A stretch of DNA of 32,000 bases, from NCBI GenBank assembly GCA_041649575.1, contig JBAZMW010000003.1, positions 60,001-92,000 of the forward strand, in the 5' to 3' direction. Source of the stretch: Patescibacteria group bacterium (GTDB lineage Bacteria; Patescibacteriota; Patescibacteriia; 2-01-FULL-39-33). The position numbers and the translations under genes were made by a program. The notes beneath the pieces were generated by a model. It was not told the DNA's origin. It saw only the letters and a list, made by a program, of their open reading frames with translations, and ran no database searches. Positions 14,705-17,962 of this stretch are shown one piece after another. How positions within the stretch are numbered: the first letter of the stretch is position 1; the number at the start of each line of letters is the position of its first letter.

Positions 14705-15724
14705 TTAAAAAACCCGTTCTAACTTATATAGCCAATAATAATTTAATAATCTCTCACGCACCTTATGACCATTGCCGTGGCTTAACAGCCCTAAATATGA
14801 TTGCAAAGTCGCGTTAGTCGGACTAATCTTAATTCTATTTATGGACTTTCTCTTGGTGGTATTCCGCAATACCCGATGGTCAGTAAAATGAACCCAACCA
14901 AGATAATCAACTCCCGAGGCCATTGTTCTTATGGATATTTTATTGGGATGAAGAGTGAGCTTTAATTCCTTAGACAAAAATTGACCTATTTCTGGTAATA
15001 TTTTTTCTAGATACTCTTTGTCGTCATTGAGAACCATAAAATCATCGGCATAGCGCAAGTAATATTTCACTTTTAATTTATGTTTTACCCATTGATCAAA
15101 ATCATTCATGTAGACATTGGCCAGTAGTTGCGAAGTGAGATTGCCAAGTGGCAGCCCGATATCCTGGCCGTAAATCTTACTATCATAACTCTCAATTACC
15201 TCGTCGAGCAGACTCATAATATCTCGGTCGGGAATATAGCGGGATAAGCTATCCATAAGGATTTTATGATCGATACTGTCAAAAAATTTCCTGATGTCAC
15301 ATTTCAAAACCCAGCAGGTGCGAGAGTGATTTTTGCTTGTTTTGTAGGCCAAAGCACGGAATCTGTTCATCGCTTTATGCATTCCCTTATCATTGCGGCA
15401 AGAGAAAGAATCGGCGATAAAAGTCCTGTCAAAAAAGGGATAAAGAATTCGATAGATAGTATGATGAATCAAGCGGTCGCGGACGCTGGCTTTGTGGATA
15501 TGCCGACGCTTAGGATCGGTTATATAGAAATCAACATAGCCGCCATGACAGTATGTTCGATTGGCCAAATCCTCGTTTAATGATAAAATATTGTCGAGCA
15601 GGTTACGAGAAAATATTTGGACGTCCAGCTTCATTTTTTTGCCAACGATAAATTCTCGCCACGCGGAAAATAAATTTTCTAAATCAATAATCGAATTATA
15701 GTTATGGCTCAGTTGGATTTTCAT
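14705..15724 (-). CDS. Diversity-generating retroelement reverse transcriptase
   Basis: RT motifs include the DGR-typical IGLPLGNLTSQ and the catalytic YADD (YLRYADDFMVL). I prefer the ATG at 15724, preceded by AAAGGA, over the track's TTG start at 15784. Confidence 0.9.
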   Translation of the reverse strand: MKIQLSHNYNSIIDLENLFSAWREFIVGKKMKLDVQIFSRNLLDNILSLNEDLANRTYCHGGYVDFYITDPKRRHIHKASVRDRLIHHTIYRILYPFFDRTFIADSFSCRNDKGMHKAMNRFRALAYKTSKNHSRTCWVLKCDIRKFFDSIDHKILMDSLSRYIPDRDIMSLLDEVIESYDSKIYGQDIGLPLGNLTSQLLANVYMNDFDQWVKHKLKVKYYLRYADDFMVLNDDKEYLEKILPEIGQFLSKELKLTLHPNKISIRTMASGVDYLGWVHFTDHRVLRNTTKRKSINRIKISPTNATLQSYLGLLSHGNGHKVRERLLNYYWLYKLERVF

Positions 15725-16096
15725 AATAATTCCTTTAAGTCCCCCCCCCCAACGGGTTTTGATAATTTTCCAATTTTGACGCAATTAAAGGAAGGGTATA
15801 AATTGTGGCACGGCTTCTTAAATCGCCTGCCTCGCACTACGCGCTATACTCTGGGGACAAAAATCGATAATATCTTTACGGATTTAATTGCCACCGCCTT
15901 AACCGCCAAGTTTGCCAGACAAGATGAAAAAATTATCAGGCTAAAACAAATCAGCGAGGGTCTTGATCATCTCAAATACTTTCTGACGATACTGTGGGAA
16001 ATAAAAGGGATAGACAGTGGCAAACTCTCCGCTTTGGGCAGTCGTCTGGCTGCCGTCGGAAAAATGGTCGGCGGATTACTCAAGTCAATTTCATAA
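15704..16096 (+). CDS. avd: Avd-like four-helix-bundle protein (23S rRNA intervening-sequence protein family), DGR accessory
   Basis: FDNFPILTQLKEGYKLWHGFLNRLPRTTRYTLGTKI...AVGKMVGGLLKS matches the four-helix-bundle/Avd pattern, including the C-terminal GKMxGG motif. ATG 15704 is the only ATG upstream of the first helix. The gene is divergent from the RT, and the two 5' ends overlap. Confidence 0.8.
   Translation: MAQLDFHNNSFKSPPPTGFDNFPILTQLKEGYKLWHGFLNRLPRTTRYTLGTKIDNIFTDLIATALTAKFARQDEKIIRLKQISEGLDHLKYFLTILWEIKGIDSGKLSALGSRLAAVGKMVGGLLKSIS
15741..15750. repeat. C10 (G10 on the minus strand) homopolymer tract
   Basis: Ten consecutive C. They lie inside codons 13-16 (SPPP) of the avd ORF and 17-26 nt upstream of the RT ATG. 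Confidence 0.95.
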
Positions 16097-16140
16097 AAAG
16101 GAAAAGAAGGTCTCAAAAACCTTCTTTTCCTTTTTATTTT
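16097..16140. terminator. Strong bidirectional hairpin terminator after avd, between TR and the RT
   Basis: Perfect 15-bp stem aaaggaaaagaaggt / accttcttttccttt (16097-16133) with loop ctcaaaa. There is a T-run on the + strand and an A/T-rich flank on the other side. Confidence 0.75.
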
Positions 16141-16148
16141 CACATCAT

Positions 16149-16256
16149 CAGGAGCACGAAGCCGATATTGTCGTTGCCATTCTCGTCCCAGTTGTTGCAG
16201 TTGAGCCCGTTGTCGTCGAAGTTGCCAGCAATGAGACGATTGCCGTCGTTCAAGGT
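16149..16256 (-). repeat. DGR template repeat (TR)
   Basis: 108 nt, identical to 16707-16814 except at 21 positions. At 20 of these, this copy has A (minus strand). It contains 7 AAC and 3 AAT codons in the VR reading frame. Confidence 0.85.
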
Positions 16257-16682
16257 CAATCAATAGTTGTGAATATTGTCTTCCAAAACACCGCCCATTG
16301 AGTTCTCTCTGGGCTGAACCGTATTTGGGGTCATGAGCCCACCAACAATAAACACGGGGTGTGAAAAATGTCCTTGGGATAATTTCCTTGCTCTGGCGCG
16401 ATCCTTAGACAACGCCATTCGGAAGAATAAATTACCTTGTTCTGCGGGCTGGCGTCCGTGGAGACCAGCTAAGTTTAACTTCGCAGTAATGGTAATTATA
16501 TCACAATCGAAAATTTTTATGAAGATAGATATCTGCATTAGCTCCTCGGCTCGAAAATTTAAAAGATTACTTTTACATTTCTCTCGCTCTACGTCGCTTA
16601 TAAAAAAGAGAGGCCTCGGTGCGATGACCAAGGTCTCAAGTGTCCAAGTGTCCAACAATCCGAGGCGAGAGCGCCAAGGATC

Positions 16683-17411
16683 CTACTTACCGAGCTTCTC
16701 CACCCCCAGGAGCACGAAGCCGATCATGCCGTCGCCACCCTCGCCCCAGTCGCGGCAGCGGAGCCCGACGCCGCCGAAGCCGCCAGCAATGAGACGACTG
16801 CCGTCGCGCAAGGTGTCAGACGCCATGTAGAGACGATTCAGCGGTACACGTTCGCCCGTACGCTTGAAATGCGCGAGGATAAGAGCGAACTGAAGCTGAA
16901 TCGAGCCGAATGTTGTGGCGTGATTACCGGGCAATTCGTAGCGCTGTTTGAGTTCGGCGCGGTGCTTTTCCATCGCTTTGATGTTCTTACCCGTGCTGTT
17001 TTCTGCCAGGCGAGGAATCCAGAACACCAAGCAATCGTCGGTGGGGTTGTCGTTGAAATTCCAGCTCTGGAGGTAGCCGAGATTCTCGTAGCAAGGACCG
17101 ACAATCGGGGCGTGCTTCTTCAACGTGAAGCCCTGCTTGATAAGCCATACAACAGGCCCCGTGTAGCCCATCAGAGCCGCCAGTTTACGCCAGGGGGCGA
17201 GACGGTCTGTGAACTGTGGGAACTGCTCCAGCATCTTACTATCGGATAAGGGAATGGCGAAAGTATTCGCGATTTCTTCTTGCACGAGTGCGGCGAGGAA
17301 CTCTTTCACCTTTCCTGGCTTATCGGCAAAAACCGACATCTCTTCATCGCTGAGGCCATTAAGTGTGGCCAATACCGATACTGCACTTGCCTTACGGTCT
17401 GTCGTCTTCAT
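16683..17411 (-). CDS. DGR target protein with C-terminal variable region (C-type-lectin-like VR pattern ...NxGF...)
   Basis: 242-aa ORF. Its last roughly 40 aa (TLRDGSRLIAGGFGGVGLRCRDWGEGGDGMIGFVLL) are encoded by the VR. No signal peptide is evident. The gene is G+C-rich and has its own consensus promoter. Confidence 0.85.
   Translation of the reverse strand: MKTTDRKASAVSVLATLNGLSDEEMSVFADKPGKVKEFLAALVQEEIANTFAIPLSDSKMLEQFPQFTDRLAPWRKLAALMGYTGPVVWLIKQGFTLKKHAPIVGPCYENLGYLQSWNFNDNPTDDCLVFWIPRLAENSTGKNIKAMEKHRAELKQRYELPGNHATTFGSIQLQFALILAHFKRTGERVPLNRLYMASDTLRDGSRLIAGGFGGVGLRCRDWGEGGDGMIGFVLLGVEKLGK
16707..16814 (-). repeat. DGR variable repeat (VR)
   Basis: Counterpart of the TR. At 20 of the 29 TR adenines it carries G, C or T. 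The 3'-terminal 16 nt (cggcttcgtgctcctg) are A-free and identical in both copies. Confidence 0.85.
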
Positions 17412-17613
17412 AACTTGCCTTTCTGCCTACCTGAGGCAGTATTCCCAACCACCATGGCCGAGAAAAAGATGGGGCATTCAGTGGTCCCAACTTTCTTTCT
17501 GCATAATTTACCCTGTAGGAATAGGCACTCAAATTCCACAGGGTTTATCTTAAATTAAACAAAAAGAAAGCTGGAACCTAAAACTTATCAATATATTAAT
17601 GAACTAATAATAT

Positions 17614-17642
17614 ATTATACGGCATATGACAAAATTTGTCAA
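17614..17642 (-). promoter_or_regulatory. Consensus promoter of the DGR target gene with a palindrome over the -35
   Basis: On the minus strand: TTGACA (17642-17637), a 17-nt spacer, then TATAAT (17619-17614). A 7-1-7 palindrome TGACAAA-T-TTTGTCA (17627-17641) overlaps the -35 and the spacer. Confidence 0.55.
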
Positions 17643-17842: not shown

Positions 17843-17962
17843 ATATAGATTGTTTTGATTAATTACAGCTTACAATCAGACTGGATCCAACTGAGCTATC
17901 CGCCTCGGCTCGCCTTGCTCGCCAAGGCGAGACGGGCAACGGCTTATAGATTGTTTTTGATT
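17836..17962 (-). repeat. 25/26-nt direct repeat (tRNA-Thr first 7 nt plus upstream flank) bracketing a 76-bp G+C-rich hairpin / tRNA-like remnant
   Basis: caacggcatatagattgttttgatt (17836-17860) matches caacggcttatagattgtttttgatt (17937-17962). The insert holds a 9-bp hairpin ctcgccttg-gcgag-caaggcgag and the D-arm-like GGCGGATAGCTCAGTTGGAT (minus strand). Confidence 0.6.

Follow-up and report, generated by a model that had tools for sequence, protein, structure and literature searches.

A diversity-generating retroelement of a Patescibacteria genome with a predicted structured RNA leader upstream of its template repeat

The window analyzed here, i.e. the whole stretch of 32,000 nucleotides, originates from a Patescibacteria MAG, and the target protein encoded in it is 100% identical to a protein of this MAG. 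It harbors a complete diversity-generating retroelement (DGR), consisting of a DGR-type reverse transcriptase (RT), an Avd, an adenine-specific pair of template repeat (TR) and variable repeat (VR), and a target gene with the VR in its C-terminal part (Table 1). An earlier note on this DNA had also described the element as complete. TR and VR are separated by 450 nt that contain a candidate promoter and an RNA leader.

Table 1. Positions of the DGR features in the window
Feature	Position	Strand	Evidence or remark
DGR RT, 339 aa, ATG at 15724	14705..15724	-	LGNLTSQ and YADD; Pfam RVT_1 1.2e-27
avd, 130-aa ORF from ATG 15704	15704..16096	+	Pfam bAvd 8.3e-12; NCBIfam DivGenRetAVD 7.7e-15
G10 homopolymer (C10 on the avd strand)	15741..15750	-	16 nt upstream of RT ATG, just before Shine-Dalgarno AAAGGA
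Perfect 19-bp hairpin, 7-nt loop	16093..16137	.	A/T runs on each side; overlaps the avd stop codon
TR	16149..16256	-	repeat alignment, pattern search, codon analysis
DGR RNA leader, about 230 nt (predicted)	16257..16488	-	kept in sequence and structure; family alignment, core alignment A3 (48 loci)
Leader core: P1, P2, P3 (predicted)	16271..16353	-	covariation; covariance model R1
S1 leader strand (UUUUCACACCCC)	16356..16367	-	proposed primer-strand analogue; pairs with TR 3' flank 16146-16137
Candidate DGR RNA promoter, TTCATA-17-TG-n-TATAAT	16495..16523	-	10/12 match, extended -10
Target 3' UTR: TAGG, CTTGG/CTCGG repeats, terminator-like hairpin and T-run (16633-16614)	16604..16685	-	terminator scan
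Target gene, 242 aa	16683..17411	-	ORF
IMH-like 3' boundary	16701..16722	-	A-free 16-nt block same in TR and VR, then VR-specific GGGGTG (TR: ATGATG)
VR	16707..16814	-	target residues 200-235; repeat alignment, codon analysis, family entropy
Target 5' UTR, conserved and structured, about 190 nt	17412..17613	-	alignment of 18 homologous upstream regions
Target promoter, TTGACA-17-TATAAT	17614..17642	-	directly after tRNA-Tyr; 12/12 consensus match

Realignment of TR and VR yielded ungapped repeats of 108 nt with 21 mismatches, 20 of which are located at TR adenines, exactly as counted in the earlier note. The TR contains 29 adenines, and exchanges were A>G (15), A>C (3) and A>T (2); the sole non-A mismatch, T>G at repeat position 90, adjoins an A>T exchange. 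The probability of at least 20 out of 21 mismatches at A is 5.9e-11 (Fisher p = 6.5e-14). As claimed before, the VR encodes the C-terminal part of the target, in frame with its ORF, and 14 of 36 codons differ between TR and VR; none of the 14 changes is synonymous. The TR is indeed rich in AAC (7) and AAT (3) codons and further contains five GAC codons, while its adenines occupy codon position 1 (13) or 2 (16) and never position 3. A pattern search tolerating A->N exchanges returned only TR and VR in the 32-kb window. In the alignment of the target protein family, columns with an A at position 1 or 2 of the TR codon had an entropy of 2.75 bits compared to 0.61 bits for the others (p 4e-7); this entropy is a between-lineage proxy for diversification, as the 90% cluster of the target holds one sequence. 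Judged by this alignment, the family varies at exactly the positions recoded in the VR. The final 16 nt of the repeats (CGGCTTCGTGCTCCTG) lack A and are identical in TR and VR, which had been seen correctly. Beyond this block, GGGGTG in the VR versus ATG(A/G)TG in the TR was kept in 11/11 loci of the target family (ATGGTT for the TR in one of them, L015), suggesting that the 3' ends carry an IMH in the VR that is distinct from the IMH* in the TR.

The RT ORF carries the motifs LPLGNLTSQ and YADD, in agreement with the earlier reading of this gene. The best match among solved structures was 8ub7, a 328-aa RT (8.7e-38, residues 11-312), whereas group II intron RTs reached 2.3e-21. The depositor's name for 8ub7 is just 'Reverse transcriptase', and we take it to be bRT of BPP-1. 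The window RT shares 31% identity with BPP-1 Brt over 310 aa (E 3e-46). Motifs, structure match and Brt identity all identify it as a DGR-type RT. Another origin of the RT (group II intron, retron or defence RT), with a coincidental repeat pair, might be read from the best NCBIfam E-value, which was obtained with a group II intron RT/maturase model (4e-45), and from the DRT-type models that PADLOC lists for this protein. However, the NCBIfam and PADLOC libraries hold no DGR RT model and all these scores are below the curated cut-offs. Also the margin of 8ub7 over the group II RTs, the full-length identity to Brt, the adjacent avd gene and the adenine-specific TR/VR pattern (p 6e-14) contradict such an origin, which is effectively refuted and to which we assign a negligible probability. 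Individually, a group II intron was rejected with 154 bits for TIGR04416 (cut-off 300) and no Rfam group II match in the window, and a retron with retron RT models far below their cut-offs and no Rfam retron RNA in the window.

The neighboring ORF on the opposite strand encodes an Avd homologue according to Pfam bAvd (PF22296; 46 bits, cut-off 40) and NCBIfam DivGenRetAVD, which covers residues 23-127 with 55 bits and is below its cut-off of 80. Since the conserved domain begins at residue 23, translation of avd might start near TTG 15776. A 21-nt overlap of the 5' ends of avd and RT exists only if avd starts at ATG 15704; this overlap is doubtful, because the Avd profile begins at residue 23 and the putative N-terminus contains a poly-C tract of variable length. 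Thus, the opposite orientation of avd proposed before was confirmed, but not the overlap. Of 80 related loci, 72 have a G8-G14 tract (mode 10) in the position of the homopolymer, between avd and RT.

The target gene has a G+C content of 56% in comparison to 42% for the window and possesses its own consensus promoter, both in line with the previous description. The promoter hexamers are kept in target homologues with as well as without a DGR. In the 5' UTR a long stem (17573-17562 / 17497-17486) and, just ahead of the ATG, two hairpins (17464-17442 and 17439-17423) are predicted; RNAalifold proposed 15 pairs, of which 10 show compensatory changes, and a search of this region against Rfam gave no match. 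Neither a Pfam, NCBIfam or PADLOC domain nor an obvious signal peptide was detected in the target protein. Its 112 homologues bear CPR names wherever the source names one, suggesting that the protein family is restricted to CPR; at 50% identity, 315 representatives were counted. The structure prediction called for in the earlier note resulted in a confident AF2 model (pLDDT 91, pTM 0.86), and Foldseek with this model gave weak matches to a viral C-type lectin (E 0.14) and to Mtd (E 2.8), so that a C-type lectin fold is only weakly suggested. Downstream of the VR, the 5-mers CTTGG, CCTTG and CCCTT are enriched 15-21x within 100 nt (52 loci). Hits of the CTTGG-type motif in these loci amounted to 3.9 per 100 nt after the VR, compared to a background of 0.57 and 0.29 after the TR.

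The gene order was compared in 10 genome loci and about 70 metagenome loci sharing the layout. The order target-TR-avd(reverse)-RT was present in the 10 genome loci of the same target family, in which 196 of 210 TR/VR mismatches are at TR adenines, and in 41/41 metagenome loci with enough flank, whose target families differ from that of the window. Wherever avd was detected in a fetched related locus, it was inverted. The order TR-(avd)-RT was described as "architecture B3" for 90% of a CPR DGR set (Wu et al., 2018, NAR 46:11). With this core order, an avd on the reverse strand and a Patescibacteria host, the element belongs to architecture B3. Clade 2 of the DGRs is confined to CPR (Roux et al., 2021, Nat Commun 12:3076), and host and relatives point to a placement of the window DGR in this clade. 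The earlier note had regarded the gene order as unusual, although it represents the CPR norm, and the small target as a departure, although small CPR targets without recognizable domains are already on record (Wu et al., 2018; Roux et al., 2021).

In most of the 11 family loci, the conserved leader is preceded by a TGnTATAAT-type promoter, with a TATAAT/TATACT-type hexamer some 14 nt ahead of the leader start. At the other end, a perfect hairpin between TR and RT had been described before as a 15-bp stem at 16097-16133; its presence was confirmed, while the extent had to be corrected to arms of 19 nt (16093-16111 / 16119-16137), starting 11 nt after the end of TR/VR homology. A hairpin follows the TR in 11/11 family loci, and of 52 related loci at least 36 have one with a U-rich tail. 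As the hairpin is usually found after the TR and mostly has such a tail, the TR is probably carried on an RNA of its own, about 400 nt long. Comparison of about 70 loci, with promoter, leader and hairpin plus U-tail, backs the previous suggestion of a separate RNA ending at the hairpin; read-through into the antisense avd is possible. The TR would be transcribed alone, from the TGnTATAAT promoter (16523-16495) to the hairpin (16137-16093), and the DGR RNA would comprise the leader, the TR, about 10 nt and the terminal hairpin. Of 278 DGRs, 207 were reported to have Avd-binding stem-loops directly after the TR (Handa et al.). We propose that the hairpin of the window terminates transcription in both directions and forms the 3' end of the DGR RNA, and it is a candidate for the stem-loop bound by Avd.

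Within the leader core, P1 (16353-16344 / 16280-16271) is predicted to enclose the hairpins P2 (16340-16337 / 16331-16328) and P3 (16314-16311 / 16296-16293), and the 3' strand of P1 stops 15 nt short of the TR. For the 20 pairs of the core, 95.9% of cells were paired versus 73.4% after shuffling (0/500) and 33-49% when slid. Compensatory changes were present in 18 of the 20 pairs (covariation score 0.742 vs 0.288), and the predicted fold is strongly supported by covariation. The covariance model R1 gave one match in the window (16267-16394, 86 bits) and matched 20 non-seed loci (E 1e-8 to 1e-29), always upstream of TR/avd/RT. Also in loci with different target families, the core is always immediately upstream of the TR.

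The leader strand S1 is proposed to pair with the 3' flank of the TR. The cognate duplex had -8.81 kcal/mol, compared to -4.89 +/- 0.35 kcal/mol for permuted combinations (z = -11.3, 0/20000 permutations). Several S1/flank pairs of unrelated sequence were compensatory (e.g. UUUUCACA/UGUGAAAA, AAAUGAAGC/GCUUCAUUU and CAUACGA/UCGUAUG); S1 and flank sequences are often shared by descent, so independent covariation events are far fewer than loci. The 3' part of S1, CACCCC, is complementary to the VR-specific GGGGTG. Where TR and VR differ shortly ahead of their terminal divergence, the reverse complement of S1 agrees with the VR at 33 sites, with the TR at 8 and with neither at 4; farther along it switches to the TR flank. 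A comparable preference is seen in BPP-1, where Sp47-56 matches the VR at 9/10 positions and the TR at 6/10. Complementarity of the primer strand to the VR has been proposed as the basis of IMH recognition (Naorem et al., 2017).

Based on this arrangement, the DGR RNA resembles a circularly permuted version of its BPP-1 counterpart, in which the priming and stop structures seem to lie upstream of the TR and not downstream as in the textbook phage element. The 'Sp' spacer elements, which follow the TR in BPP-1, would precede it here. S1 and the 3' boundary of the TR would form the template:primer duplex. P1 would link the strand directly behind S1 with the one directly ahead of the TR; with P2 and P3 enclosed, it would have the same topology as the cPRT-stop duplex and RT-binding elements of BPP-1, and the terminal hairpin would take the place of the Avd-binding stem-loop. 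Synthesis of cDNA by RT-Avd would be primed in cis at S1 and proceed along the TR, with misincorporation opposite adenines. The resulting RNA-cDNA chimera would then find the VR, since it is the VR IMH (GGGGTG), and not the TR version (ATGATG), to which S1 is complementary in its 3' part. The permutation is one of topology, with no sequence homology to the Sp of BPP-1, and R1 did not match BPP-1.

A canonical layout, in which the RNA reads through the hairpin and the Sp-like primer and RT-binding functions lie downstream in the antisense avd, appears unlikely. The leader would then have another role, e.g. as regulator of TR transcription or as target 3' UTR, and the helix of S1 with the flank would act only as a cPRT-stop-type clamp. 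[quoted passage not shown] However, the helix has its downstream strand right at the end of TR/VR homology (0 to 5 nt), and S1 follows the rule that marks the primer strand of BPP-1, i.e. complementarity to the VR IMH and not to the TR IMH*. Furthermore, avd coding on the opposite strand constrains what follows the hairpin, where the conserved part is the Avd C-terminus, and the constant position of the leader core directly upstream of the TR in spite of differing target families also speaks against a canonical layout.

The intact parts of the element suggest that this DGR in a Patescibacteria (CPR) genome is probably in a working state. It might instead be a fossil, which was formerly active and generated the A-specific TR/VR differences and no longer diversifies its target. 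Decay is common in this family: of 33 loci with a target homologue, about 20 contain neither RT nor avd nor TR within 6 kb, one locus (L017) retains only the leader and a truncated TR, a second (L031) has a TR fused to a truncated RT and a third (L033) only RT fragments. The single-sequence 90% cluster of the target and the one non-A mismatch in the VR would also fit a fossil. Against this, the RT ORF, including YADD and LGNLTSQ, and the avd ORF are intact, and the leader still scores 86 bits against the lineage model. S1, IMH, promoter and hairpin are all intact as well, the codon changes in the VR are non-synonymous in 14/14 cases, and the TR adenines are still at codon positions 1 and 2. 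We therefore regard a fossil as quite improbable. Taken together, we consider it likely that the window carries a chromosomal DGR of the Patescibacteria lineage (clade 2, architecture B3) with a TR transcribed alone and a permuted RNA.

The closest known systems are the CPR DGRs (Wu et al., 2018; Roux et al., 2021), which share the host group and an avd inverted between TR and RT; gene order is identical throughout. As in the window, their target lies upstream on the RT strand, is small, has a C-terminal VR and lacks a recognizable domain or membrane anchor. In the CPR DGR literature compared, Paul et al. 2017 aside, the leader RNA, S1, the CTTGG repeats after the VR and the poly-G tract are not described, so that these features may add to the knowledge of CPR DGRs rather than set the window apart. 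Retrons have a structured ncRNA dedicated to the system and transcribed from a promoter of its own, to which the DGR RNA of the window can be likened, and use an internal RNA strand beside the template as cis primer, resulting in an RNA-cDNA chimera; for the window this role is proposed by analogy to BPP-1. In contrast to retrons, the window contains no msr/msd inverted repeats and no match to a retron RT family above cut-off, an Avd is present, and the product is proposed to rewrite a homologous gene segment.

The prototype BPP-1 (mtd-avd-TR-brt) shares with the window the adenine-specific TR-to-VR transfer, the AAC-rich TR codons, a 3' end at which a G+C-rich block identical in both repeats gives way to the diverged IMH and IMH*, a stem-loop directly after the TR and an RNA strand that pairs with the 3' end of the TR and is more complementary to the VR IMH than to the TR IMH*. 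The window Avd matches the Avd profile, while BLAST detected no direct similarity between it and BPP-1 Avd, and in BPP-1 avd is not inverted between TR and RT. BPP-1 is phage-borne and its target is a tail fibre, whereas the window element is chromosomal with a target that is not. The G+C-rich cruciform that follows the IMH in BPP-1 is replaced by CTTGG repeats. Finally, the roughly 140-nt Sp between TR and RT of BPP-1 is absent from the window, which instead has a predicted structured RNA upstream of the TR, and the TR RNA of the window seems to start at a promoter and stop at a terminator of its own.

The template repeat (TR) and the variable repeat (VR), the latter encoding the C-terminal part of the 242-aa target, align over 108 nt without gaps and with 21 mismatches. 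Twenty of these fall on the 29 adenines of the TR (A>G 15, A>C 3, A>T 2; binomial 5.9e-11, Fisher 6.5e-14), which bears out the adenine-specific mismatches described in the earlier note. In the target frame 14 of 36 codons differ, the amino acid being altered in all 14, and the adenines of the TR codon sequence TLNDGNRLIAGNFDDNGLNCNNWDENGNDNIGFVLL are confined to codon positions 1 (13) and 2 (16). The final 16 nt of both repeats are identical and A-free. The sole non-adenine mismatch, a T>G, adjoins an A>T (AAT ATC in the TR, ATG ATC in the VR), and the two could perhaps represent one dinucleotide event in cDNA synthesis or repair and not an independent mutation. The check for further VR copies was run within the window, where a pattern allowing any base at the TR adenines matched the TR and the VR only. 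An invariant CACCCCGTG was rejected as a family-independent motif, since other target families carry UACUUGGUG there and the motif follows the VR end.

The RT (339 aa) matches Pfam RVT_1, and its best match among solved structures is 8ub7, a 328-aa RT that aligns near full length (8.7e-38), while group II intron RTs follow at 2.3e-21. It shares 31% identity over 310 aa with Brt of BPP-1, the Bordetella phage prototype DGR (mtd-avd-TR-brt), including G(L/I)P(L/I)G(N/S)LTSQL(L/F)ANVY. A group II intron, retron or defence RT could be excluded, because none of the curated NCBIfam cut-offs for group II, retron or DRT enzymes was reached, no RNA families were matched and a DGR RT gave the best match. 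Avd matched Pfam bAvd above threshold and NCBIfam DivGenRetAVD at 7.7e-15, under the cut-off of that model. With an RT of DGR type, Avd and an adenine-specific TR/VR pair, the identification as a diversity-generating retroelement was right: the locus is a real and complete DGR and a typical member of the B3 / clade-2 kind, the published architecture (Wu et al., 2018) and lineage (Roux et al., 2021) of DGRs in Patescibacteria (CPR).

The layout had been regarded as unusual, a view that fails, as the order TR-(avd)-RT, in which avd runs in reverse, is architecture B3 (Wu et al., 2018) and was also found in the relatives checked; the sense of oddity came from taking the phage textbook case as yardstick. 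In ten of 33 target-family genome loci the arrangement of target, TR, inverted avd and RT equals that of the window, and 196 of the 210 TR/VR mismatches in these ten lie on TR adenines. A profile search with the RT yielded 80 metagenome loci (55-65% identity), in which avd is inverted in every locus where it is detectable. All 41 with enough flank have the order VR, 250-540 nt spacer, TR, avd (reverse) and RT, and their target families differ from that of the window. At L062:4714-4819, in one related locus, a second VR-like copy of the TR lies ~2.6 kb downstream, past the RT, with 23 mismatches, all at TR adenines, indicating that this element has two targets.

In about 60% of the target-homologue loci (L003-L007, L011, L016, L019, L021, L022 and others) neither a TR nor avd nor an RT lies within 6 kb. 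Several of these keep CTGGGGGTGGAG, the IMH (the VR 3' boundary element), TAGG/CTTGG repeats and the terminator, and such DGR-less loci may be trans targets or relics. Decayed DGRs were found at L017:3249-3500, where the leader and a truncated TR run directly into ORFs, at L031:6001-6522, where the TR is fused to a truncated RT, and at L033:3475-4198, which retains RT fragments only. That the DGR core is a simple insertion relative to L005, the closest DGR-less relative, was unsupported, synteny being restricted to the region upstream of the target. Tandem or nearby target paralogues occur in L007, L012, L025 and L026. The records of L009, L010, L011, L013, L014, L018, L020, L024, L030 and L033-L035 bear the title 'uncultured Gammaproteobacteria bacterium' (TPA assemblies); MAGs of this kind, with a CPR-specific target and DGR, are probably mislabelled bins.

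The target matches, at 100% identity, a hypothetical protein from a MAG named 'Patescibacteria group bacterium', and it gave no match in Pfam, NCBIfam or PADLOC. Its 112 homologues come, wherever the source gives a name, from CPR groups (Buchanan-, Magasanik-, Uhrbacteria etc.), and clustering at 50% identity gives 315 representatives for the family. Across 33 aligned members conservation is high over the N-terminal ~195 residues, and the C-terminus follows the consensus ASDTLxxxGxRLIAGxFxxxGLxCxxWxxxGxxxxGFFLLGVExLG. Entropy reaches 2.75 bits in columns with an A at position 1 or 2 of the TR codon versus 0.61 bits elsewhere (p 4e-7). A confident AlphaFold2 model (pLDDT 91, pTM 0.86) retrieved no significant match with Foldseek, the best non-significant hints being C-type-lectin-like (viral C-type lectin, E 0.14; Mtd, E 2.8; DUF1566, E 4.6). 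With no known fold match, function or signal peptide, the family bears on the question of what CPR cells diversify intracellularly.

In all but a few relatives (L003-L035; for example 0.61 versus 0.34 in L019) the whole target gene, and not the VR alone, exceeds its surroundings by 10-25 points of G+C. In the window the GC3 of the target outside the VR is 0.65 and that of the immediate neighbour genes 0.42-0.52; neither the RT gene nor avd is G+C-rich. The ~190 nt target 5' UTR, which lies behind a perfect consensus promoter, is conserved and contains a long stem with covariation and, immediately ahead of the ATG, two hairpins, and it is also present in target homologues without a DGR. An Rfam search with the leader, the target 5' UTR and the hairpin gave miRNA/sRNA matches at chance level only. 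Being conserved and structured and without an Rfam match, the 5' UTR is a candidate cis-regulatory RNA. Upstream of the nearby tRNA-Thr gene, part of that gene's upstream region and 5' end is present a second time (AAAACAATCTATA-GCCGTTG); this copy is broken by a G+C-rich hairpin and followed by a D-arm-like GATAGCTCAGTTGGAT, and it appears to be a pseudo-tRNA or a rearrangement scar adjoining the DGR target.

Features of the DGR locus and its flanks (positions in the window)
Feature	Position	Strand	Remarks
Partial copy of tRNA-Thr upstream region and 5' end	17843-17957	minus	
tRNA-Thr	17842-17769		
Target 5' UTR	17412-17613	minus	
Target gene	17411-16683	minus	
VR	16814-16707	minus	
T>G/A>T dinucleotide	TR 16167-16168, VR 16725-16726	minus	
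CTTGG/CTCGG/CCCTT repeats	16604-16685	minus	after target stop
VR-TR spacer		minus	450 nt; order: target stop, CTTGG/CTCGG repeats, terminator-like hairpin, promoter, leader
Terminator-like hairpin and T-run	16633-16614	minus	
Candidate TR RNA promoter	16523-16495	minus	TTCATA-17-TGaTATAAT; promoter scan
TR leader		minus	~230 nt, conserved, reaching the TR
Leader covariance model match	16267-16394		86 bits
S1 (leader strand)	16367-16356	minus	
P1, P2, P3 (leader core helices)	16353-16271	minus	
TR	16256-16149	minus	
Perfect hairpin after the TR	16093-16111 / 16119-16137		19-nt arms
avd	15704-16096	plus	
Putative avd start after the G tract	TTG 15776	plus	
G10 tract	15750-15741	minus	
RT gene	14705-15724	minus	
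RT start codon	ATG 15724	minus	

The -10 element of the TR promoter is kept in most relatives, ~14 nt before the conserved leader start. In every locus of the window's target family a strong hairpin lies ~10 nt past the end of TR/VR homology, and of 52 loci in all, 36 were scored as having a hairpin with a U-rich tail after the TR. In the window the hairpin and the avd stop codon overlap, and A/T runs flank the hairpin on either side, so that it would be able to terminate both convergent transcripts. The conservation of promoter, leader and hairpin backs the earlier proposal of a separate TR transcript that would end in this hairpin, the arms of which are longer than the 15 bp first reported. 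Snap-back self-priming, with the 3' U-tail folding onto an A-run, was dropped as an explanation, since the A-run before the hairpin is present in much of the window's target family but missing in other families. After the VR, CTTGG-type pentamers are enriched 15-21-fold within 100 nt in 52 loci, whatever the target family, whereas after the TR of these loci no enrichment was observed. The repeats occupy the place of the G+C-rich cruciform of BPP-1 and may be a target-site mark in its stead.

The leader contains covarying helices and a strand whose reverse complement tends to match the VR. The 128 nt upstream of the TR were aligned for 48 loci, and the RNAalifold consensus comprises 20 pairs, with P1 around the hairpins P2 and P3 and compensatory double changes in 18 of the 20. 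When this structure was held fixed, 95.9% of cells were paired, versus 73.4% in column shuffles (0/500) and 33-49% with slid partners, and the covariation score was 0.742 versus 0.288. The covariance model matched the window once and recovered 20 non-seed loci (E 1e-8 to 1e-29), with every match lying upstream of TR/avd/RT, and gave no match in BPP-1.

S1, the 20 nt directly 5' of P1, pairs with the TR 3' boundary at a cognate mean of -8.81 kcal/mol, versus -4.89 +/- 0.35 kcal/mol with permuted partners (z = -11.3, 0/20000). This signal emerged only with anchoring on P1; when wide leader windows were paired with the TR flank by RNAduplex and no anchor was set, the outcome was uninformative (cognate -17.9 versus -15.6 kcal/mol). 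The pair is UUUUCACA/UGUGAAAA in the window and AUCUCAUACACC/GGUGUGUGAGAU, AAAUGAAGC/GCUUCAUUU, CAUACGA/UCGUAUG and AAAAAGAAAC/GUUUCUUUU in other lineages. Where TR and VR differ close to the boundary, the reverse complement of S1 agrees with the VR in 33 cases, with the TR in 8 and with neither in 4, and beyond these positions it changes over to the TR's own 3' flank. In the window it reads GGGGTG + TGAAAA, the VR-specific GGGGTG being followed by the TR-specific flank; a weak point is that the CCCC of S1 nearest the boundary pairs with just one of the four TR nucleotides AUGA.

A further conserved element, the G10 tract, lies 16 nt upstream of the RT ATG, directly before the RT Shine-Dalgarno, and a tract of G8-G14 (mode 10) is found at the equivalent position in 72 of 80 related DGR loci. 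On the avd strand it falls within the putative Avd N-terminus (SPPPTG), an in-frame start codon upstream of it is kept in only about a third of the loci (approximate tally), and the Avd profile match begins only at residue 23. Either avd starts after the tract, which in the window would leave no avd/RT overlap, or avd translation is phase-variable, and the 5' overlap of the two genes claimed in the earlier note is thus uncertain. Conservation of a long homopolymer that varies in length is what marks a contingency switch. We hypothesize that the tract may be a phase-variable switch of RT/avd expression, in which case a second hypermutable device would perhaps control whether hypermutation itself takes place.

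Among cellular DGRs those of CPR bacteria are the most numerous and, to our knowledge, all mechanistic work on DGRs comes from one phage element. The RNA layout of BPP-1 cannot hold for the CPR elements, since in these avd takes up the position of Sp, the RNA spacer downstream of the TR. Our joint reading, which is tentative and falls somewhat short of being the probable one, is that the CPR DGR RNA is a circular permutation of that of BPP-1, combined with a CTTGG target mark and a poly-G phase-variable switch of mutagenesis. The ~230-nt leader upstream of the TR would contain the primer strand, which would also guide to the VR IMH, together with the stop helix and the RT-binding hairpins, and the transcript would end ~10 nt past the TR in a hairpin doubling as terminator and Avd-binding stem-loop; this layout would let avd sit inverted between TR and RT. 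Lineage-wide, CTTGG repeats after every VR would replace the cruciform as target-site mark, and the hypermutable G8-G14 tract at the avd/RT junction would switch mutagenesis. The locus alone is one more example beside hundreds of published CPR DGRs and changes nothing by itself. The parts worth following are the permuted-RNA model, the IMH-guide strand, the repeats and the poly-G tract, for which no description was found in the accessible literature, which did not extend to Paul et al. (2017), the main CPR DGR paper. The CPR mechanism becomes directly testable in vitro through the RNA model backed by covariation, the covariance model that retrieves it and a specific candidate for the primer/IMH-guide strand.

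For BPP-1, recognition of the IMH by pairing with the cDNA-linked RNA primer was proposed (Naorem et al., 2017), and the S1 result carries this proposal to a distant lineage. In the published register Sp47-56:TR118-127, the reverse complement of Sp47-56, TGACCACCTA, matches VR118-127 at 9 of 10 positions and TR118-127 at 6 of 10, so that the experimentally defined BPP-1 primer strand obeys the same VR-over-TR rule as S1, a match noted for BPP-1 by Naorem et al. (2017). In the BPP-1 RNA the TR is followed by the Avd-binding stem-loop (Sp5-32), the primer strand (Sp47-56, priming at A56), the cPRT-stop strand, the thumb ring and the bRT-binding stem-loop; the partner of the cPRT-stop strand is the 20-nt stretch that immediately precedes the TR. 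By analogy, S1 would prime, P1 would stop the RT and the terminal hairpin would bind Avd. In the CPR RNA the succession is S1, the P1 5' strand, P2 and P3, the P1 3' strand, the TR, the template flank and the terminal hairpin, and it would present the same helices as the BPP-1 RNA in a circularly permuted order.
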